A program made the position numbers and the translations under genes. Source: an uncultured Candidatus Saccharibacteria bacterium (lineage in GTDB: Bacteria > Patescibacteriota > Saccharimonadia > CAILAD01 > CAZGYV01). Taken from it: a stretch of DNA of 64,000 nt. The notes under the pieces were generated by a model. That model made no database searches. It had not been told where the DNA came from and worked only from the letters and a program-made list of their open reading frames with translations. The DNA is taken from positions 9,744 to 73,743 of the forward strand of contig CAZGYV010000003.1 of assembly GCA_964530725.1 (NCBI GenBank), in the 5' to 3' direction. Below are positions 5,585-64,000 of this stretch, in pieces; within the stretch, counting starts at the first letter, position 1; each line of letters begins with the position of its first letter.

Positions 5585-6784
5585 TTGTCAACTTACTCCT
5601 ATGGGCCACGTCAAAGTAGGCCTAATCGTTCGCGCAAGCGAATGTTTGCTAGTCAAAATCGTAATCGAAAAACCAACAAGGGCGTCTATATAAACCCCGA
5701 GCGATTTATCAAAAAAGCCGATCCAGCGGTACCCGTCGAAGATTACCAGCCACAGCATAGCTTCGAAGATTTCGCGCTTCTGCCAGCCATTCAGGCCAAC
5801 GTGCGTCGGCGCGACTACAAAACTCCGACCGCCATCCAAGATCAAGCCATCAAGCCAATACTAGAGGGCAATGACTTGATCGGTATTGCCAACACCGGCA
5901 CCGGTAAAACGGCGGCTTTTATATTGCCGCTGCTCGATAAAATTTTGCGTAACCCCAGTGAACAAGCTATAATCCTAGCTCCCACTCGAGAGCTAGCCCT
6001 ACAGATCGATGCCGAGCTTAAGCTTTTTGCTGGTGGTCTGCGTATCTACAGCACGCTCTGCATTGGCGGCACGAACATCGATCGCCAGATCTCCAGCTTG
6101 CGCCGTAATCCACATTTTATAATCGGCACCCCTGGACGGATCAAGGATCTGCTCAAACGCAACTCTATCAAGCTGGCTAATTTTCATAATGTCGTACTTG
6201 ACGAGGTGGATCGCATGGTCGATATCGGCTTTATTCGCGATATCGAGCTTATCTTGAAGCAAATGCCCACCGAGCGTCAGTCGCTGTTCTTCTCGGCCAC
6301 CACCACGCCCAAGATCAATGCTCTAATGAGTACTTTTCTGAAAAATCCAGTCACTGTGTCGGTACGGACTGGCGAGACCACTAATAATGTAGATCAAGAT
6401 ATCGTCCGAGCCGCTCCTGGTTTGCAAAAAATCGAGGTTTTGCACGAGATAATCAACGGCCATGAGGTCGAAAAAGTGATTATATTCGTTGACACCAAGC
6501 GCAACGTCGAAAAACTGTCGCGCGATCTTAACGCCCGCGGACTGGCTTCGATCACGATTCACAGTAATAAATCGCAATCTCAGCGCCAGCGGGCACTCAA
6601 GCAATTCAAGGCTGGTGAATCTGATATTCTGGTAGCCACTGATGTGGCGGCGCGCGGGCTAGACATCGATGGCGTTACTCACGTCATCAATTACGAGCTG
6701 CCCCAGTCGTACGACGACTACGTCCACCGTATCGGCCGTACCGGGCGAGCCGGTAAAGTCGGCAAAGCCCTGACTTTCGTCTAA
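5585..6784 (+). CDS. DEAD-box ATP-dependent RNA helicase (DEVD variant) with Arg-rich N-terminal extension
   Basis: Q-motif region, GTGKT (motif I), PTRELA (Ia), VLDEVDRM (II), SAT (III) and HRIGRTGRAG (VI) are present. TTG start follows an AAAGAGA RBS-like sequence; an in-frame ATG at 5642 is the alternative start. Confidence 0.85.
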   Translation: MSTYSYGPRQSRPNRSRKRMFASQNRNRKTNKGVYINPERFIKKADPAVPVEDYQPQHSFEDFALLPAIQANVRRRDYKTPTAIQDQAIKPILEGNDLIGIANTGTGKTAAFILPLLDKILRNPSEQAIILAPTRELALQIDAELKLFAGGLRIYSTLCIGGTNIDRQISSLRRNPHFIIGTPGRIKDLLKRNSIKLANFHNVVLDEVDRMVDIGFIRDIELILKQMPTERQSLFFSATTTPKINALMSTFLKNPVTVSVRTGETTNNVDQDIVRAAPGLQKIEVLHEIINGHEVEKVIIFVDTKRNVEKLSRDLNARGLASITIHSNKSQSQRQRALKQFKAGESDILVATDVAARGLDIDGVTHVINYELPQSYDDYVHRIGRTGRAGKVGKALTFV

Positions 6785-6854: not shown

Positions 6855-6990
6855 GCACTCAAGGATATAAAGCCTGATAGTCATCTAAATAATCGGCCGG
6901 CTGCACCAACCGCCAAGAAATCCATCTTGATTGGTTTTATTTTGCAATTTATTAGGAGCCAATATCAAGCGTAGAGAGCACAAGGCAAAA

Positions 6991-7037
6991 CCAAAAATCC
7001 CCCTAAGGCGTACGTCGTGGTACGGCGGGGGATTTTT
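6991..7037 (-). terminator. intrinsic terminator downstream of rpsJ
   Basis: AAAAATCCCCC...GGGGGATTTTT stem (11 bp) followed on the minus strand by a TTTTTGGTTTT run, 48 nt after the rpsJ stop. Confidence 0.5.
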
Positions 7038-7084
7038 AGTTTTAACGAAGTGATATCCGCTTCAGATTGGCTCGCTTACGCGCA

Positions 7085-9743: not shown

Positions 9744-9775
9744 ACGCTTTCATCCTTTGTCACTGCCTTGAGCAT

Positions 9776-25048: not shown

Positions 25049-26334
25049 GATTTTTTCTCTTCCCTAGCATATTGTAACAAAATTCCAACAGCTTTTTCGG
25101 TCAATAAATGGTTCTTCAAATCATCACGAAAATGCTCATGCTCCATCTCTTTTTGGATCTGAGGATCAGTGTATTGAGCCTTCATCTGGTGATAGTGCTC
25201 GTCGAGCTCCCGCTCCGAGACGGTCAGTTTATTATCATCCACCAGGCGGCGGACGATCAAAGCGATTTTAACGCGTTTATTAGCTTCCGCGTCAATCTCC
25301 CCGTCGACCTCCGACTCGGTCTTGCCTTGGATTTTTAGATACTGCTCAAGTGTCAGACCATTAGTACTCAGATTATTATTAACCTCTTCCTTCAATTTAG
25401 CCACCTGATACTCGATCAAGCTGGCAGGCACCGTAAACTCGATCTTGGCAAGCGCGTTATCGAGCACCTGCTGCTCGTATTGCTTTTTCTGCTGATCGGC
25501 TTTTTGAGCCTCTAGGCTCTTTTCGACATCGAGCTTTAGCGCCGCTAGAGTCTTAAAAGCACCAATCGACTGAGCGAATTCATCGTTAATCGCCGGCAAT
25601 TCGACTTTATTAACCTCGTGAACTTGAACTTTAAATACCACCTTCGCACCGGCCAAATCTTTATGCCCGTAGTCTTTTGGGAAAGTTACCTCGAATTCCT
25701 TTTTGTCGCCTTTTTTCAAACCGATCAGATTTTCTTCAAATCCGGGGATAAACTGCTTATCACCAACTGTAATGGTTTGATTTTTTGCAGCCGCCCCCTC
25801 GACAGGTTTGCCTTCACGCACCCCCTCAAAGTCCAGCTTCACCTCATCGCCATTGCCAATCGGCGCGGTTGATGGCAATCGCTTCGCCATCTGTTTTTGC
25901 AAGCTTTTGAGGGTATCATCGACTTCCTGCTTATCTATTTTGAGCACTGGCTCTTTGACGATTAATTTTTTCGCGTCAAAGCCAAAACTTGGCATGATCG
26001 CCACTTTGGCCTCGAATTCCAACTCGCTATAAGGCACGAATTTCTTGAGTGTAATCTGCGGCGCGTCGATCGTCTCGAGCTTTTCCGCTTTCACGCCCTG
26101 AGAGTAGGCCCGCATGACCACCGCCTCGACGACGTGCGACTGGACATAATCTGTGCCCAAATGACGCTCAGCAATATTATCAGGCATTTTACCTGGCCTA
26201 AAACCGGATATTTTGAGGTCTTTTTTGAGATCGGCGATAGTGGCCGCTTTAATCGGCTCGATAAATTCAGCCGTGACTTCGATTGTAATTTGGGCCGTAC
26301 TATCGGCGTTCTTTTTGAGAGTATGTTTGATCAT
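25045..26334 (-). CDS. tig: trigger factor
   Basis: 429 aa, N-terminal ribosome-binding region with GFRPGK-motif (PPIase-fold) domain; 4-nt overlap with clpP. Confidence 0.9.
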
Positions 26335-26384
26335 AACCTGACTATTTTAGCAAACTTTCTCTCTTTTATGAATACCTTTAAGTA

Positions 26385-26438
26385 AAAATGAAGGCACCCG
26401 GACTCACCCCTTGATAGTCAAGAAGAAAGTCCGGGTGC
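26385..26438 (-). terminator. intrinsic terminator downstream of the CHAP-lectin gene
   Basis: Perfect 10-bp GC stem GCACCCGGAC / GTCCGGGTGC with a roughly 25-nt loop and a downstream U-tract (CTTCATTTTTACTT) on the minus strand. Confidence 0.45.
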
Positions 26439-26473
26439 TAAAGCGGCCTTTTAGTCAGCCGCGCTTATGCCTC

Positions 26474-27853
26474 CTAGATGTCGTGGTATTTCTGCCACAA
26501 CCGCTGATCGGTGCCAAGCACCAAGACGTCGATCGCCCCGACCGACCAGGACACTGTGCCCGGTGCGGAAGTCAGCCCACCACCGAGTGACTCCCAATTG
26601 TACCACCTGTCGGCATACCAAAGATGGATTAGGTCGTTGTTTATCCCCCGAGCAAAAACATCGAGCCGGCCAGGTGCCCACGACGACACGGCTGGAGCGG
26701 AAGTCAAACTGCCGCCCAGGCACTCCCAGTCATACCAACGTCCGCCATCGTACCATTTGTGATACATGGTCGAGATGCCCGGCCGCGAGAAGTCCACGCT
26801 GCCGACAAAGATGTCAATGCGCCCGGGGCCCCACGACACGGCCGCCGGATCAGTAGTCAAATACCCGCCCAGCGACTCCCAACCGCTCCAACCACCTGAG
26901 AACCACTTGTGCACCAAATCACCATTTAGCCCGCGAGCGAAGACGTCCAATCGGCCAGGCGCCCACGAAGCTACGCTTGGAGCAGAGGTTATCAGTCCGC
27001 CAAGCCACTCCCAGTCATACCAGCGCCCGTTGTCATACCATTTGTGCCAGAGCGACGCGTCCACGCCTTTGGCAAAGATATCGATCCGGCCTGACATCCA
27101 GGCTACCGCGCTCGGCGCGCTGGCCAGAATAGTACCAGCCGGAGCGCCAAGCGATTCCCAGTCAGACCAAACACCGCCGACAAACCAGCGATGCGCCAAT
27201 TGCAGGTTGTCATCACGAACAAAAACATCCAATCGGCCGCGGCCCCAAGTGGTTACCGCTGGGGCTGAAGTAAATGTTTGAGTGGAAAACTGCTGCCACT
27301 CGCGCCAATTCGCCACACTGCCCGCAATCACTTTGCCGAAACGCCAGGCTCGCGCCACCCAGCCAGCAGCCGGGCTTGGCCGCCAATTGGTCGCTCGCGT
27401 AACTCGGCCTGAGCCAAGTGGGACGTTCGACTGCACGATGTCAAAGTAGCCATTGCCATGATTTGCCACCACGACGACAGTGTGGGCGTAGGTCCAGTCA
27501 TTGTTAGCGTAAACCAAGTTGTTGCTGGTGTACTGAATGACGTCACCTTTGACGGCACTGCCAAGCGACACCGAGCTGGCGCCCGAAGCGACATAGCCCG
27601 ATATCACCCCGCCGCCACCGAAATAACCACCGGCCGCACCCACCCAACGCTGGGCACTTTTGATGCACTCGCCGGACATATTCCAGCCCGTCGCCCGAAC
27701 GGAGCCAACCTCGGCAATTGCCGCATCAGCCACCCTGCCATTGTCAAAATTCTGGGCCGCGTTGGCCGCTGGGGCGTCCAGCAACCCGGCAGCTAGCCAG
27801 ATCGAAGCGGCGATTACCGCTCCGACGACATACCGCGCTATCCTGTCAATCAC
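26474..27853 (-). CDS. secreted CHAP-domain amidase/peptidase fused to a W-rich beta-propeller (PLL/tectonin-like lectin) repeat array
   Basis: A GTG start at 27853 is preceded by AAGGAGG with a 4-nt spacer and gives a textbook signal peptide (MIDRIARYVVGAVIAASIWLAAGLLDAPAANA|AQNF); the ORF track's TTG start at 27928 adds a 25-aa non-signal extension. The CHAP-like Cys...His set is present (GECIKSAQRW ... AHTVVVVANHGNGYFDIVQSN). Five to six tandem roughly 47-aa repeats follow (APxVxSWxPGRLDVFxRGxDxxLxHKWYxGGxWxxWExLGGxLTS). GC is clearly above the window average. Confidence 0.75.
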   Translation of the reverse strand: MIDRIARYVVGAVIAASIWLAAGLLDAPAANAAQNFDNGRVADAAIAEVGSVRATGWNMSGECIKSAQRWVGAAGGYFGGGGVISGYVASGASSVSLGSAVKGDVIQYTSNNLVYANNDWTYAHTVVVVANHGNGYFDIVQSNVPLGSGRVTRATNWRPSPAAGWVARAWRFGKVIAGSVANWREWQQFSTQTFTSAPAVTTWGRGRLDVFVRDDNLQLAHRWFVGGVWSDWESLGAPAGTILASAPSAVAWMSGRIDIFAKGVDASLWHKWYDNGRWYDWEWLGGLITSAPSVASWAPGRLDVFARGLNGDLVHKWFSGGWSGWESLGGYLTTDPAAVSWGPGRIDIFVGSVDFSRPGISTMYHKWYDGGRWYDWECLGGSLTSAPAVSSWAPGRLDVFARGINNDLIHLWYADRWYNWESLGGGLTSAPGTVSWSVGAIDVLVLGTDQRLWQKYHDI

Positions 27854-27925
27854 TACCCCTCCTTGAAAGTAGTGCATCCCGATCTGACAAGCTAGAATTA
27901 GCCGCAAAAGCAAATCGGCAAAAAT

Positions 27926-27965
27926 CAAAAAAGGGACTTTTTACAAAAAAAGCCCTCCTTTTTAA
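27926..27965 (-). terminator. probable terminator between tRNA-Leu(TAG) and the CHAP-lectin gene
   Basis: The minus strand reads AAAAAGGAGGGCTTTTTTTGTAAAAAGTCCCTTTTTTGATTTTTG, an imperfect GGGCTTTTT/AAAAAG(T)CCC stem followed by a U-run. Confidence 0.3.
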
Positions 27966-28128
27966 AATCATGCAATCCGCTCGGTGTAACCTAGCTGATA
28001 CCAATATAATCAGACGTCTACTCGAATGCAATCATGAGCAAGATAACGCCTCCAGGTCTACTAAATCTAATTGACAATATATACTAAATATGATATAACG
28101 AGGAGATAGATAGTTTTCTCTCTCTTCT

Positions 28129-53487: not shown

Positions 53488-56261
<2,774 letters not shown>

Positions 56262-59532: not shown

Positions 59533-59693
59533 AGGCCTTTGATATTAACATAATAGAATAGATAAGTGACGGAACTTAAAATCATAAAATTTTGTAATTT
59601 ATATCATCAATGCATAAAATTATAGATATAAATTATGAAAAATTTGTGATTTTATAGAGGAGAGGTTTGGCTCAAATTTGAGGTCTCAAGTCG

Positions 59694-61292
59694 TTAAGAC
59701 TTTAGACGAAAAATGAAGCCATTCTCGACGAGCGGGTGTAGCTCAGCTGATAGAGCGCTTCCTTGCCAAGGAAGAGGCCCCGGGTTTGAGTCCCGGTACC
59801 CGCACCAAATATTTGAATTATGAGCCGCAAGGCTCTTTTTCTTTGTTTCAACGACTGTTCTAAAGGGGTCGTTTAGTATATAAGACAACTTCTTATCCTT
59901 TAGTTCAATGTTTGAAAGTACGTATTCCAGCAACTTCTGTCTTAGCCCCTCATCGCTCTCGTTGAATAGCTGTTCAGCCCGTTGTGCCAAGTCTAACAGA
60001 TAGGATGCGGTAACTTGAAAGTCTTTGTTGTCGCTTGTTAGCAACTTTAGGCGGTCATTCAGCTCCTGCTGTTTCTTTTCTAGCTCAGTTGCAATTTCAT
60101 CGTGGAATGTCTGTGTAATACGACCCTCAAGTAAGTCATAGTAAACCTTACGCATCTTTTCTTTGAGTTTGTCGTACTCAGCACGGGTTTGCTCAATGTT
60201 TTGCGTGAAGTACAGCTGCTGGTCATTATGACGGTTACGCAGCTCGGTGATGACTTTATCTAACCACTTCTCAGGCACGTCTATAAATCCTATATCTTCC
60301 GTAACCTTATCAATTACAAGGCTAACGGCTGTATTCGGATTATCGCACTTTGCGTTGGCACATCGCAAATACACGGTGTTACGAGCCTTGAACGGCGATA
60401 CTGCACGTCCGCATTTGCCGCACTTTACTATCTTTTTCAGGGTAAAGTCTTTGCTGTCGTACTTTGTCATCTCGTGCTTACGTTCATCACGGACACACTG
60501 AACCTGATTGTACAAGCCACGACTGATGAGTGGCGGGTACTTGTGCGGGTAGCGTCTGCCAGCGTGAACCATAAAACCGCAATAAAACTCGTTGCTTAAT
60601 ATTCTTTCAATAAACTGTTTGCTTGGTGCTTTACTGCCAGCAATGTTGCTACGAAAGCCCATCTCACGCAGTTCCTTAGCAATGACGGCGTATGATATGC
60701 CTCTTGCTCGCATTTCGTAGGCTTTCATTATGTAGTGAGCCTTAGTGTCATCAACTTCAATATCTTTGATTGGTTTCTGTGGCGTACCGCCTTTTAGTAC
60801 GTTCTTGTAACCGACAGGTGCTCTATGTACCCATATACCCTCACTCAGCATTTGCTCAAAGCGGCGTTTGACGTTATCTCGGATGCTGTCTGAGTAGTAT
60901 TTAGCCAATGCCATACCGATACCGAGCCTGAACCAATCGGCTGCTGACGAGTTTTGGTCAATGTACAGGCTATCGTGCGGGAAGTGCAGCTCAATTTTGC
61001 CGAGCTTTACCAGCTGCTGTAATGCTTTTACTTCCTCTTGGCTGCTATCACGAGTAAAGCGGTCAATTTTATCAAAGACCACGTAGCACAAAGTTGGCTG
61101 CTTTTGGATGTGTTCAACGAGCTTAGCGAACTTCTGTCGTTCTTCTTTATGAGCACTCTCGTCAAACTCGTGGTACTCGTAGGGTAGTTTCTTTTGTTCG
61201 GCGTATCTTTCAAGCCGTAACTTTTGAGCTGGCAACGCTTTTCGTTGCTCAATATCTGATACTCGTGCGATTAGGATTATCTTTGCGTCCAT
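59694..61292 (-). CDS. large serine recombinase (serine integrase)
   Basis: N-terminal resolvase catalytic domain (IARVSDIEQ with the catalytic Ser, and DRFTRD), a central recombinase domain, a Cys4 zinc ribbon (CGKCGRAV...CANAKC) and a coiled-coil C-terminus. The final roughly 50 codons are read antisense through tRNA-Gly and its terminator. Confidence 0.85.
   Translation of the reverse strand: MDAKIILIARVSDIEQRKALPAQKLRLERYAEQKKLPYEYHEFDESAHKEERQKFAKLVEHIQKQPTLCYVVFDKIDRFTRDSSQEEVKALQQLVKLGKIELHFPHDSLYIDQNSSAADWFRLGIGMALAKYYSDSIRDNVKRRFEQMLSEGIWVHRAPVGYKNVLKGGTPQKPIKDIEVDDTKAHYIMKAYEMRARGISYAVIAKELREMGFRSNIAGSKAPSKQFIERILSNEFYCGFMVHAGRRYPHKYPPLISRGLYNQVQCVRDERKHEMTKYDSKDFTLKKIVKCGKCGRAVSPFKARNTVYLRCANAKCDNPNTAVSLVIDKVTEDIGFIDVPEKWLDKVITELRNRHNDQQLYFTQNIEQTRAEYDKLKEKMRKVYYDLLEGRITQTFHDEIATELEKKQQELNDRLKLLTSDNKDFQVTASYLLDLAQRAEQLFNESDEGLRQKLLEYVLSNIELKDKKLSYILNDPFRTVVETKKKSLAAHNSNIWCGYRDSNPGPLPWQGSALSAELHPLVENGFIFRLKS
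59732..59807 (+). tRNA. tRNA-Gly (anticodon GCC)
   Basis: 76 nt: GCGGGTG acceptor, AGCTGATAGAGC D-arm, anticodon loop TTGCCAA, CCGGG-TTTGAGT-CCCGG T-arm, ACCA end. Close to E. coli tRNA-Gly(GCC). Confidence 0.9.
59822..59845 (+). terminator. intrinsic terminator downstream of tRNA-Gly (GNRA-looped hairpin plus U-tract)
   Basis: GAGCC-GCAA-GGCTC followed by TTTTTCTTTGTTT. It lies antisense inside the 3' end of the recombinase ORF. Confidence 0.5.
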
Positions 61293-61318
61293 AATACTTA
61301 CTCCTTACTAACTTAACA

Positions 61319-62506
61319 TTACTTACCAGTATTTTCAATGTTTGATAGAAACTCTGACATTTTTGTTGGGGTAAATCGTTGCAGTGCCTCGTCTATATGT
61401 ACAAAGGCTGTGTAACGATGTGCTTGCGGTGCGTTTAACAGTGGTTTTATGCGATACCACGCCTGCTTGCCATAACGAGCCTCAAGCGTGTTTCGCAAGC
61501 CGACAACACCTGCTTGGCTGGCGATGAGCATACCTGCTACTGCCGCAAGTGCGGCTTGTGGTGTAACTTCATCGTTTGCCTCAAGGTAGTTTTGTAAAAG
61601 CTCAAATGGCTGTTTTACGTCCAGTGCCAACATATCTACATTGGCAGTCAGCTTTTTCCAGTGCTTGAGTAGTGTGTTTTGGCACAACTTCATTTTGAAC
61701 AGGCTTTCAAACGTCCACTGTTCCAAGTAGGGGTAGGCTCGCTTGATAGAGGCTCTACCGACAAAACGTACTTCGTATCTGAATACTTCCATTGGTCGGT
61801 ACTCAGATAGACCCTCAAGCAAATTGAGCTGAACCGAGCTGTCTTTTTCAAAAGCCCGTTTGTTGCTTTTCTTAGCTTTTAGCAGGTCAGCCATTTTGTC
61901 GTAAAAGGCTATATCAAGTGAATTGGCGTGAATGTGTACGACGTGTCCATCGCGAAAATCGGTCTTTTGAAAATCGTACGTTTTGCTTACGTCTAGCTTG
62001 CCCATTGTATTCAGGATTGTTTGGCACGATGTGTAGTCAAGAAACACGATGTTCTTAGACGGATGCCAAGCCGCAATATCGGCGGTAGCTAGTTGTGGCT
62101 TAAAGAAACGATGACCGAGTAGTTCGTGTAACGAACTTTGTAGTGCCGTGAGCAAAGCATCAAAGTCATTTTCTGTTAGCTCATCAAAGTTGTTGCCGAA
62201 CAGCATCTTTGGTGCTGAAAACTCAACTGCCAGTTCGTACGTTACCGCACCAAACTTTCGCACTCGCTTGTACATCGTCAGTCGTGGCATATACTTGCCC
62301 ATCTTGGCATATGTCGGCGAGGGGTTGAGAAACGTCTTGCCATAGCCTCTGCTGTTCACGAGTTGCTCAAGCGTTATAGGCGTAAACCTGCTGCCATCAA
62401 AGACCAGCGGATTATGTACGGGTATGAGTAGTTTTACTGTGTCTACCATATCGTTCATCACTTCTTTCAAATAACTCAACGCACTTAGCAATAACTGCTT
62501 GCTCAA
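61319..62506 (-). CDS. rolling-circle replication initiator-like protein (Rep_trans-family-like)
   Basis: 395 aa containing HVVHIH (HUH-like) and the DIAFYDK motif resembling the R(I/L)YDK catalytic-Tyr block of Rep_trans initiators, plus a later YGKQAWYRIK. The start is uncertain (Met17/Met38 alternatives) because of overlap with the next ORF. Confidence 0.5.
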   Translation of the reverse strand: MSKQLLLSALSYLKEVMNDMVDTVKLLIPVHNPLVFDGSRFTPITLEQLVNSRGYGKTFLNPSPTYAKMGKYMPRLTMYKRVRKFGAVTYELAVEFSAPKMLFGNNFDELTENDFDALLTALQSSLHELLGHRFFKPQLATADIAAWHPSKNIVFLDYTSCQTILNTMGKLDVSKTYDFQKTDFRDGHVVHIHANSLDIAFYDKMADLLKAKKSNKRAFEKDSSVQLNLLEGLSEYRPMEVFRYEVRFVGRASIKRAYPYLEQWTFESLFKMKLCQNTLLKHWKKLTANVDMLALDVKQPFELLQNYLEANDEVTPQAALAAVAGMLIASQAGVVGLRNTLEARYGKQAWYRIKPLLNAPQAHRYTAFVHIDEALQRFTPTKMSEFLSNIENTGK

Positions 62507-62723
62507 TCACTTTGCCAGCCTCTTTGGTTACTGGATAAAAGTAGTTGAGCTGGCGTGAGCCAACTTTCTTAGTTGGGTAGGTTATGCGATAGCCTGTACC
62601 GTCTAGTCGCTGATGTACGCCAAGTGAACCAATGAACAACTGCCCATCAATTAGGCAGCTGGCAAAAGCTACAAGCCCGTTAGTCGGTTTGACTGGCGTG
62701 ATACTTACTTCACTAATGGTCAT
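62412..62723 (-). CDS. SpoVG-like protein
   Basis: MTISEVSITPVKPTNGLVAFASCLIDGQLFIGSLGVHQRLDGTGYRITYPTKKVGS...IEQAVIAKCVELF aligns block by block with SpoVG (M.ITDVRI......KAFASVT.D..FVIHDLRV..G..G.FVAMPSRR). Confidence 0.6.
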   Translation of the reverse strand: MTISEVSITPVKPTNGLVAFASCLIDGQLFIGSLGVHQRLDGTGYRITYPTKKVGSRQLNYFYPVTKEAGKVIEQAVIAKCVELFERSDERYGRHSKTTHTRT

Positions 62724-62785
62724 TTTTCTTTCGCTCCATCGCTATTTCCTTATTGCTTGCCCAAGACCAAGCCGAAAGAAGTAGG

Positions 62786-63028
62786 CTAATCAGTTTGTTG
62801 AGTGTTATTCGTAGTACCTTGTAGAAAATCATCACTTTCATTCCTTTGTTCATTACGTTGTTTTTGTGCAAAGTCCATCTGAATTAGCACGTCAAAGAAA
62901 CCAGTGAGGTTGTGAATAGCCTCATCACTCAACTCGGCAGCCACGCCTTTATTTGCGGCATTATCCTGTGGTTCTGCTGGCAGGGGTTTTTGTTGGTGGT
63001 TATTCTGCTGTCCTTGCATAGTAACCAT
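62786..63028 (-). CDS. hypothetical Gln/Asn-rich small protein (80 aa)
   Basis: ORF inside the low-GC element; no recognisable domain. Confidence 0.3.
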   Translation of the reverse strand: MVTMQGQQNNHQQKPLPAEPQDNAANKGVAAELSDEAIHNLTGFFDVLIQMDFAQKQRNEQRNESDDFLQGTTNNTQQTD

Positions 63029-63078
63029 TAAGAAGAAAGGCTTATTTAAGCCATTTAAATCTGTGGAAAAGACGACTT

Positions 63079-64000
63079 TTACAGATTGATATAATCTGGG
63101 TTTACATAAACCTCAATGCCCTCAAGTATGAAGAAGTTGGGCATTGTGTTGTTGGTGTCTCGGAGTACCTTATTGTTGAGTTGGTGTATATAACTGCGTA
63201 TTTTGCTAATCCAGTCCTGCTCGTCATTAGCAATACGCTCGCCGAAAGCCTCAAATATCACATCCTCAATATCCCAGCGTTTTGTAATATTCTCTGGGGT
63301 GCTGAGCAAGACACGTGCAAACTGTGTTTGCTTTGAGCTGACCGTTACGGCAACTTTAAACGGACCAATCTGTATTGATGAGCTTGTGCGTTGGAAGTGA
63401 ACTGCTGTCGGTGCTATAAGCAAGTTGCCCTGCTGATTATCTTTGGCTAGCAATTGTTGCCTAAGCTCACGCACTTCTTGTTTAAGGTCATTGAACGCCA
63501 TAAGCAAGTTGGCACTGTCTGAGAAAGTGACATTGCCGACACTGCTGGTTTGGGTTGCGGTGGCAGTTGCGGTAAGGTCATCTTTATCCGTAGAAACGTC
63601 GTTTAAGATAACATTCACTGTTTCGGAGCGGCTAAATTCAATGCTTGCTGTTAGTGAGCCAACATCAAATCGCAGGTTACGTAGTATACGTTCGTGTGCT
63701 GTATGAAAATCGGCAAACATTGTCCGTGCTATAAGGGGGGCTTGAAAAGCATCTTGGATACTTTTGATTGAGGCGATGATGTGTTCGTTAGGAAAAGTGA
63801 CCAGTGATTTTTGAATGGCGGCAAGTGCCGCAAATTGATTTTGAGTAAATACGCTGCTCTTATAAATTGCCTCTACTGCGGGTGCTATCGTTTCCTGGAT
63901 ACTGAACGCCTTGTCCAAAGCTGGCTGCAAAGCAAGTGAAGTTTTCTGCATATCGGCAACGATTTTTAACATTGGCGAAGTGTCTATTGCTTGCAAGGAT
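63079..64000 (-). CDS. hypothetical protein of the integrative element (5' end runs off the window)
   Basis: The reading frame is still open at position 64000 and the listed start is only an internal TTG. The product is helical and Gln-rich with no recognised family. Confidence 0.4.
   Translation of the reverse strand, partial: SLQAIDTSPMLKIVADMQKTSLALQPALDKAFSIQETIAPAVEAIYKSSVFTQNQFAALAAIQKSLVTFPNEHIIASIKSIQDAFQAPLIARTMFADFHTAHERILRNLRFDVGSLTASIEFSRSETVNVILNDVSTDKDDLTATATATQTSSVGNVTFSDSANLLMAFNDLKQEVRELRQQLLAKDNQQGNLLIAPTAVHFQRTSSSIQIGPFKVAVTVSSKQTQFARVLLSTPENITKRWDIEDVIFEAFGERIANDEQDWISKIRSYIHQLNNKVLRDTNNTMPNFFILEGIEVYVNPDYINL

Follow-up and report, generated by a model that had tools for sequence, protein, structure and literature searches.

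Gene organisation at the window end

The stretch of DNA analysed here (64,000 nucleotides, positions 9,744 to 73,743 of contig CAZGYV010000003.1 of an uncultured Candidatus Saccharibacteria bacterium; hereafter the window) ends in part of an integrative element that is inserted at a tRNA-Gly(GCC) gene and encodes a large serine integrase. The tRNA gene (59732-59807, + strand; ARAGORN, Rfam 66.7 bits), the last gene of a small tRNA cluster, is intact and is the integration target, and all the genes to its right up to the window end lie on the - strand. Nearest to it is an open reading frame (ORF) of 532 residues (59694-61292), the integrase in its integrated state, recognised by Pfam and PHROG matches. 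This is followed by a 395-residue ORF (61319-62506) for a protein resembling the rolling-circle initiators of the G2P/Rep_trans kind, with an invariant Tyr in an AFYDK motif, and by a 103-residue SpoVG-like nucleic-acid-binding protein (62412-62723) that matches Pfam PF04026 near the cut-off. A very AT-rich spacer of ~150 nt (59540-59690) separates tRNA-Phe from tRNA-Gly and contains a promoter-like match at 59592-59620.

The DNA from the 3' end of tRNA-Gly(GCC) to the window end is foreign. Its GC content is 0.444 (59808-64000) against 0.487 in the host, which is below every one of 278 equally sized host windows (host minimum 0.450). GC content at third codon positions (GC3) is 0.43 in the element and 0.545 in the host (Mann-Whitney p = 2.6e-4), and the dinucleotide delta* of 0.137 is about twice the host maximum of 0.065. 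An earlier note, made from the letters of the window, had described an abrupt change of composition right after the tRNA; the break is real in GC, GC3 and delta*, the plain GC shift being modest and not abrupt. Two host stretches, 26000-28000 and 53500-55500, have a GC content of 0.54-0.57, clearly above the window mean of 0.487.

The window enzyme is a large serine recombinase and not a tyrosine recombinase. The domain searches proposed in the earlier note bear this out with Resolvase (PF00239; E-value 5.3e-16, residues 6-151) and Recombinase (PF07508; 6.2e-12), while Zn_ribbon_recom (PF13408; 7.5e-5) scores 23.5 bits, just below its cut-off of 25.3. The ARVSD motif is present, with R10 and S12 invariant in 32 integrase homologues, and the four zinc-ribbon Cys residues are invariant across the homologues. 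The protein matches phrog_95 (phage serine integrase) at 1e-58, and its best NCBIfam matches are CcrA, XisF and CcrB. An AlphaFold2 (AF2) model of the full-length integrase has the canonical catalytic, recombinase and zinc-ribbon domains and a coiled coil, in which beta-ribbon strands 289-311 and 459-473 flank long helices (341-445).

Attachment core, boundaries and free form

A scan of one genome per species yielded 40 loci, in ~33 of which the initiator-like gene, the integrase and an antisense tRNA-Gly(GCC) occur with fixed spacing; the exceptions are at tRNA-Trp, tRNA-Ser and tRNA-Glu, the last on a contig binned as Babeliales. Nucleotide homology among the 40 loci starts at the tRNA and stops near window position 63000, so that a conserved core is followed by variable DNA.

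The junction of host and element is the att core GCACCA (59802-59807, + strand; TGGTGC on the element coding strand), which comprises the terminal 6 nt of the tRNA, CCA among them, and, read antisense, provides the Trp-Cys codons of the integrase. Element-specific DNA begins at 59808, and 59694-59801 is host DNA, namely tRNA and 38 nt upstream of it, read antisense by the integrase ORF. The start of the element, formerly placed at 59694, has therefore to be moved to the tRNA's 3' end. In locus L005 the element is 99.6% identical to that of the window, the flanks are unrelated and tRNA-Phe is only 81% identical; mismatches in the aligned block are confined to the tRNA body, and the sequence right after CCA is identical. 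As the tRNA body varies between hosts with near-identical elements, the tRNA is host DNA, and the idea that it is carried by the element was rejected. Directly after CCA all loci keep a hairpin with a T-run (GAGCCGCAAGGCTC TTTTTCTTTG; 59822-59845, + strand), which was detected by a terminator scan, is borne by the element and lies inside the integrase coding region of the opposite strand. Its presence on the tRNA strand in all loci means that the tRNA receives a terminator-like site from the element.

The other boundary was located in relatives. A sister copy (L006, 99.9% identical) reaches 8.5 kb further than the window, and a segment of it, the far end, recurs in nearly all loci at a variable distance. 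In the alignment, conservation at the far end begins abruptly at TGGTGC, with unrelated host DNA before it. TGGTGC opens all 27 far ends found and brackets the element as a 6-bp direct repeat in 22 of the 22 loci with both ends present. Junction identity in these 22 loci is confined to 6 bp, with no long direct repeat, in keeping with what a serine recombinase is expected to use; the tRNA 3'-end repeat that had been suggested for a search is thus present in sister copies, at a length of 6 bp only. A 21-nt T-arm-like repeat in L004, considered as a far att site, was discarded: the true far end lies 104 nt further in and shares just the 6-bp core. Element lengths across the loci are 6.5-12.4 kb, those of the window's lineage being ~11.2-11.6 kb. 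By inference from the sister copies, the far end of the window's copy is expected to read TGGTGC and then AACATAGTTGACGCATTTCAAACG, with a 33-codon open frame, ~11.2-11.6 kb beyond 59807.

A free circular contig of the same element was also recovered, a circular junction being among the things that the earlier note had proposed to look for. A search with the 80-residue protein encoded in the window found an 11,270-nt contig (L071) whose exact 30-nt terminal overlap closes it into a circle of 11,240 bp, and L072 is a circular permutation of it at 100% identity that lacks tRNA and host genes. L072 matches window 59802-64000 at 99.69% identity, and the match ends exactly at the core (59802). A second family member is represented by three mutually permuted contigs from different samples (L050-L052). 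With the free circle and the far att site in the sister copies, the proposal of a mobile integrative replicon at tRNA-Gly that runs off the window holds. A scan of IMG/VR for the attP junction DNA pattern gave 0 matches, and a JGI metagenome scan gave three decayed remnants only and no circles.

An integrase gene that spans attP

attP lies inside the large serine integrase ORF, at the Trp-Cys codons, and integration moves the last ~33 codons to the far end. L072 has an intact integrase gene of 530 codons across attP (..AATTCAAATATT, TGGTGC, AACATAGTTGACG..); in the circular form the gene is whole and is followed by its own terminator, and the native protein of 530 residues ends in WCNIVDAFQTAATLAQEDYKLKHLAEQFQLADNLI. 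In the window, 59808-61292 is the element-encoded part of the gene, and from 59801 down to 59694 there follow 35 codons of antisense tRNA and host spacer, the C-terminus (WCGYRDSNPGPLPWQGSALSAELHPLV...) being antisense tRNA. The 532-residue ORF is a chimera whose host-derived last 35 codons replace the native tail. The recombinase had been described as complete; this has to be revised, the true 3' end of the gene (~33 codons) lying at the other end of the element. The stop codon of the integrated ORF (59694-59696) falls just past the right edge of the AT-rich spacer.

The integrase frame (..N-S-N-I-W-C), when continued into the far end, encodes the peptide WC[NSRK]IVD[AV][FL]QT[AS]A...[ED]DYKLKHL[AV]EQF.L[SA][GD].L[IL], followed by a stop codon and a terminator-like hairpin. 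This frame is open for 34 codons in 26 of 26 tails and both other frames are stopped in every one; third codon positions account for 53% of the pairwise differences, and 11 residues never vary. Purifying selection acts on the tail. Full-length integrases of 530-538 residues that include the tail occur in public protein sets. In many integrated copies the integrase stops at WCG (~498 residues), and in others it runs on through the antisense tRNA, as in the window. The core co-varies with the tRNA target in relatives, being TGGCAGGG (W-Q-G) at tRNA-Trp, TGGCGG (W-R) at tRNA-Ser and W-R-P at tRNA-Glu, with the Trp codon always antisense of CCA. The AF2 model places the core-encoded residues in a disordered linker and the tail, as two low-confidence helices, past all recognised domains.

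The locus could be read as an ordinary tRNA-adjacent island with a self-contained, complete serine integrase, the far-end segment being an attP binding arm or a separate small gene. Such a reading accommodates an integrase ORF that is uninterrupted in the window and has all the integrase domains, as well as the integrated genes of many hosts that end after WCG with every recognised domain upstream of the core. We nevertheless regard it as improbable, because conservation extends ~105 nt past the core, far more than an att arm, all 26 copies have codon periodicity and a frame that stays open in phase with the integrase, the free form and the database proteins present one continuous ORF of 530 residues that is followed in the free form by a terminator, and the tail segment starts at the core itself, which leaves no space for a start codon of its own.

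The initiator-like protein

The gene for the initiator-like protein probably starts at 62449 (61319-62449; 376 residues, from MVDTVKLL), and the SpoVG-like gene overlaps its start by 38 nt. The window protein has no match in Pfam, PHROGs, NCBIfam or PDB sequences; the family profile likewise gave 0 matches in PDB sequences, and tblastn searches of PLSDB plasmids and INPHARED phages found none. A profile search of 1.84 billion representatives assembled a family of 993 clusters at 50% identity. Phage_CRI (PF05144, the filamentous-phage G2P initiator) is matched by 24 of 102 diverse members (best E-value 7.5e-10) and Rep_trans (PF02486) weakly by one (0.026), and no other family recurs in more than three. 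The L041 initiator reaches an E-value of 1e-3 and 19.3 bits against PF05144, for which the cut-off is 21.7. The best fold matches of the initiator model are Rep_trans structures.

The order of motifs, N-terminal M-x-D, VE..(S)APK, the AFYDK Tyr and R.E.R, is that of M13 gpII in an hhalign alignment that is not significant, and the same alignment puts the AFYDK Tyr opposite Y197 of gpII, which we take to be the catalytic residue. The Tyr of AFYDK is invariant in an alignment of the 102 sequences, in which the invariant residues are D3, T4, E90, K132, N133, Y183, K185 and E226. In distant members HLH, HFQ, RWH or HFH takes the place of the HIH seen in the window protein, and both His positions are outside the invariant and nearly invariant columns; since HIH is not conserved, an HUH endonuclease motif was ruled out. 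The earlier note had seen a Rep_trans-like protein with HUH-like and AFYDK motifs. The rolling-circle type and the AFYDK Tyr stand, the HUH motif is dropped and PF02486 is not matched. The C-terminal helical half, ~150 residues, is family-specific. On these sequence comparisons we place the protein, as a remote relative, among the nicking initiators of the G2P/Rep_trans kind, with neither curated family established; there is a fair probability that it works as one.

SpoVG-like gene, core operon and cargo

The SpoVG-like protein scores 29.0 bits against PF04026 (cut-off 29.6; E-value 1.2e-6, profile positions 1-79 of 82), and its L059 orthologue, at 31.3 bits, is above the cut-off; the gene is kept upstream of the initiator gene in all loci examined. 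The SpoVG assignment made in the earlier note is thus upheld as a putative one, borderline but consistent.

The core operon has the order large variable ORF, acidic protein of ~70-80 residues, peptide of ~41 residues, SpoVG-like protein, initiator and integrase. Its first gene is the ORF cut by the window end, of which the window has the 3' part (63079-64000, - strand; 393-394 residues in full). It is complete in L006 (8244-9428) and measures 393-627 residues across family members; it has no Pfam match, Walker A motif or transmembrane segment. The acidic protein of 80 residues (62786-63028, - strand; ..AAELSDEAI.NLTGFFDVLIQMDFAQKQRNE..) is kept in all relatives and occurs in exactly this form on 23 contigs; it has no family match in Pfam, PHROGs or NCBIfam. 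The conserved short ORF (62713-62871, - strand; motif ..L.KLI.WL...W.WANK.E...ERK) measures ~39-42 residues in relatives and is called as a gene of 41 residues at the same position in L050-L065. Exact-protein look-ups of the window integrase, the SpoVG-like protein and a 305-residue ORF gave no match. Outside the window, a conserved gene for a 69-residue HTH_17/MerR-type protein (E-value 3e-11), plausibly an excision cofactor or a regulator, lies upstream of the operon in divergent orientation.

Just inside the far end, 25 loci keep a non-coding block of 90 nt (GGGGGGTAGTCGCCC..ACTCCGCCGTATAAATGCC..CCAAGCGTTTTT), which in L006 is at 6975-7075, ~1.4 kb beyond the window end, and may be an origin, a promoter or a control region. 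An Rfam scan of L006 and L050 gave no match. Cargo sits between this block and the far end. The cargo anticipated beyond the window is found in near-identical copies of the window's lineage as a copper cassette (CsoR-like repressor, DUF305, YncE-like propeller and P-type ATPase) and in other family members as methylase-helicase restriction-type genes or toxin-antitoxin-like genes.

PHROG matches are absent except for the integrase, no coat-like, assembly-ATPase or virion genes were found in the copies examined, and no secretion or coupling genes in any of them; a phage or a conjugative element is therefore unlikely. A second role of the initiator, as a MobT-like relaxase, is conceivable.

A filamentous-phage-like (inovirus) prophage with a gpII-type initiator, inserted at tRNA-Gly as are the Pf phages of Pseudomonas, would account for the G2P N-terminal domain matched by 24 of the 102 initiator family members, for the gpII-like order of motifs and for lengths of 6.5-12.4 kb, which are in the inovirus size range. 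In the large ORFs examined, however, no pI/Zot-like ATPase or Walker A motif was found, the small ORFs all fall short of the hydrophobicity of a coat protein (maximum KD19 < 1.6), PHROG matches stop at the integrase, the searches of IMG/VR (attP junction) and INPHARED (initiator) were empty, and the variable region holds cargo and not morphogenesis genes. For want of a Walker A motif in the large ORFs and of any ORF of transmembrane-grade hydrophobicity the inovirus was rejected, and we consider it quite improbable.

Distribution and mobility

At least 40 species genomes of Saccharibacteria carry the element. The homologues of the 395-residue protein are all unnamed proteins of Saccharimonadales or Patescibacteria. 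In one contig binned as Babeliales (Dependentiae; L044:1426-4171) a gene for an initiator homologue (30% identical) precedes that of a serine integrase, whose ORF enters tRNA-Glu(TTC) in antisense at its CCA end; this reflects either a wider host range or a binning error.

The element is site-specific, alternates between an integrated and a free state and has recently passed from one host to another over a wide host distance. In L030 and L037 the elements are 99.87% identical over 6.66 kb, with syntenic flanks that are 65-72% identical. The earlier note had held that related genomes with the same genes at this locus would speak against a mobile island. Such relatives do exist, but an ancestral locus does not follow, because a site-specific element that spreads produces the same arrangement. 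An old, vertically inherited or domesticated locus beside tRNA-Gly that is no longer mobile, to which the shared gene order in ~33 species-level genomes (initiator identity 41%-100%) might point, is extremely improbable given elements 99.6-99.9% identical in hosts whose flanks are unrelated or 65-72% identical, a far flank that differs in every host, free circular forms, relatives at other tRNAs and a detached tail that is intact in 26 of 26 copies.

Proposed mode of life

The block at the window end is very probably the integrase-proximal 4.2 kb of an integrative, plasmid-like Saccharibacteria element of ~11.2-11.6 kb that exists integrated or as a free circle and has its attP within the integrase gene. 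Recombination occurs within the 6-bp GCACCA at the 3' terminus of tRNA-Gly(GCC), so that the tRNA is regenerated exactly. The circle would be replicated in rolling-circle style by the G2P/Rep_trans-like initiator, nicking through its invariant Tyr, and the SpoVG-like protein would probably assist. In the integrated state the integrase message would lose its native tail and terminator and run head-on with tRNA transcription, by which the enzyme may be lowered or altered; the tail swap and the convergent tRNA transcription may together form a built-in switch of state or direction. Transfer from cell to cell would use a route not encoded on the element. Saccharibacteria are naturally transformable, and this would suffice for transfer.

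A more specific and tentative reading, possible but rather doubtful, makes the exchange of C-termini itself the switch: the full-length enzyme, made only from the circle, would integrate, and the enzyme without a tail or with a foreign one, which only the integrated copy makes and which convergent tRNA transcription opposes, would be excision-competent, cofactor-dependent or inactive. DNA topology would then set the allowed reaction without an expressed classical directionality factor, a corollary that we likewise put forward as speculative and unlikely rather than probable. Under the same switch reading, the position of the core in a disordered linker would let the family retarget to any tRNA CCA end by changes of 2-3 codons.

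Several points weigh against the integrative-element reading or parts of it. The far end of the window's own copy is off-window and is inferred from copies 99.7-99.9% identical. No empty attB from a close relative of the host was found, a look-up with the host LemA giving a 981-nt contig only. The circular contig could stem from a tandem repeat, and a heterologous tandem exists (L040). The window initiator reaches no curated family threshold and its hhalign comparisons with pT181 RepC and M13 gpII are not significant. RNAalifold found no conserved hairpin, structure or covariation in the 90-nt block. AF2 confidence is low for the integrase tail, whose effect on activity is hypothetical.

Comparison with known systems

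A textbook serine integrase is encoded by a self-contained gene beside attP, targets sites inside protein genes and takes its direction from a separate factor; the element family departs from each of these points. Phage Mx8 of Myxococcus integrates at the 3' end of a tRNA gene. In this phage attP lies inside the integrase gene, and integration turns intP into intX, whose product has a new C-terminus and is still active (PMC6070905; cited in PMC4383910). The present element resembles Mx8 in having attP within the integrase coding sequence, which receives a new 3' end and C-terminus on integration without destruction of the protein. It differs in that Mx8, a tailed phage, has a tyrosine recombinase as its Int, whereas here a large serine recombinase is carried by a small element without virion genes, and in an identity block of no more than 6 bp right at the CCA end. 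The 'suicidal' archaeal integrases of the SSV type also have the site within the ORF, so that the gene is partitioned, and tRNA specificity is highly variable in one family (PMC7253208). A recombination site in the integrase ORF, a split gene and variable tRNA targets within a family are thus shared with the present elements. The SSV-type enzymes are, however, tyrosine recombinases of archaeal viruses and plasmids, cut into two inactive pseudogenes, whereas the hosts here are bacteria of the candidate phyla radiation (CPR) and, with only ~6% of the ORF detached (the C-terminal tail past all recognised domains), the integrated gene may stay active.

The ssrA islands of Dehalococcoides contain DsiB, a CcrB-like serine recombinase, at the transfer-messenger RNA (tmRNA) gene, with variable cargo and tandem accretion (PMC3146451). 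They have in common with the present family a serine recombinase of ~540 residues at the element edge, the 3' part of a tRNA-like gene, cargo and tandem accretion. They differ in using tmRNA (T-loop) with a 20-bp repeat and in needing a second, small recombinase; an integrase gene across attP is not reported for them, and they lack a rolling-circle initiator. In the integrative and mobilisable elements (IMEs) of Firmicutes, a Rep_trans/MobT initiator or relaxase can maintain the excised circle, and serine recombinases insert inside protein genes (PMC5704250). These are likewise small integrated elements with a site-specific recombinase, a rolling-circle initiator or relaxase, and cargo. Their serine recombinases, in contrast, disrupt protein genes, the 3' ends of tRNA genes being used by tyrosine integrases. 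The present element also has no evident relaxase partner, coupling protein or host conjugation system, and its initiator family is distinct and without a Pfam model. For that initiator, gpII (G2P, PF05144) is the best link by sequence, through relatives, and Rep_trans (PF02486) the best link by fold; unlike gpII and RepC, the window protein is below the thresholds, is not significant in single-sequence profile comparisons and has a family-specific C-terminal half.

Work on the phiC31 integrase (PMC5737554) describes contact of the extreme C-terminus with the directionality factor and an excisive complex obtained with the factor fused to the C-terminus. By analogy, the tail of the present integrase could matter for direction. 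A survey of 2015 knew of no serine integrase with a tRNA gene as its target (PMC4383910), and DsiB is the nearest exception that was found. Literature searches, of incomplete coverage, turned up no account of this Saccharibacteria element and none of a serine integrase with attP within its gene. The design with attP inside the integrase gene, earlier described only for tyrosine integrases (Mx8, SSV), arose independently in serine recombinases.

Few mobile elements have been described in Saccharibacteria and other CPR bacteria, and genetic tools for them are scarce. The element family offers possible vector parts in the form of a natural replicon, an integrase with a short, class-wide attB (the tRNA-Gly 3' end) and recent transfer to distant hosts. 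It also defines an initiator family of 993 clusters for which no curated model exists.

Tandem, irregular and decayed copies

In a complete Saccharibacteria chromosome of 1.26 Mb (OY969928.1; L040:2047-21176) two different family members lie in tandem. Element A's integrase is joined in frame to the tail of element B, and B has SpoVG-like and initiator genes of its own; the two have accreted at one and the same tRNA site.

In L004 (875-4445), immediately beyond the far end, the 21-nt tRNA-Gly T-arm-like fragment is followed by SIR2_2 and DUF87 (HerA-like) genes, which could belong to an adjacent defence island that occupies the same hotspot. In the 6.6-kb contig L018 a second far-end segment (6215-6461) abuts the 5' end of tRNA-Val, across the tRNA cluster from the element, and could be a second copy or an assembly artefact. 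L020 (3992 and 4682) and L037 (5027-5116) each have a second, diverged integrase-tail segment 0.7-1 kb outside the functional far end; these segments look like scars of earlier integrations. Three metagenome sequences (L046:2469-2912, L047:598-1038 and L045:317-784) retain only the last ~115 integrase codons fused to the tail, adjoining host genes and tRNA-Gly in L046 and L047, and look like decayed remnants of the element.

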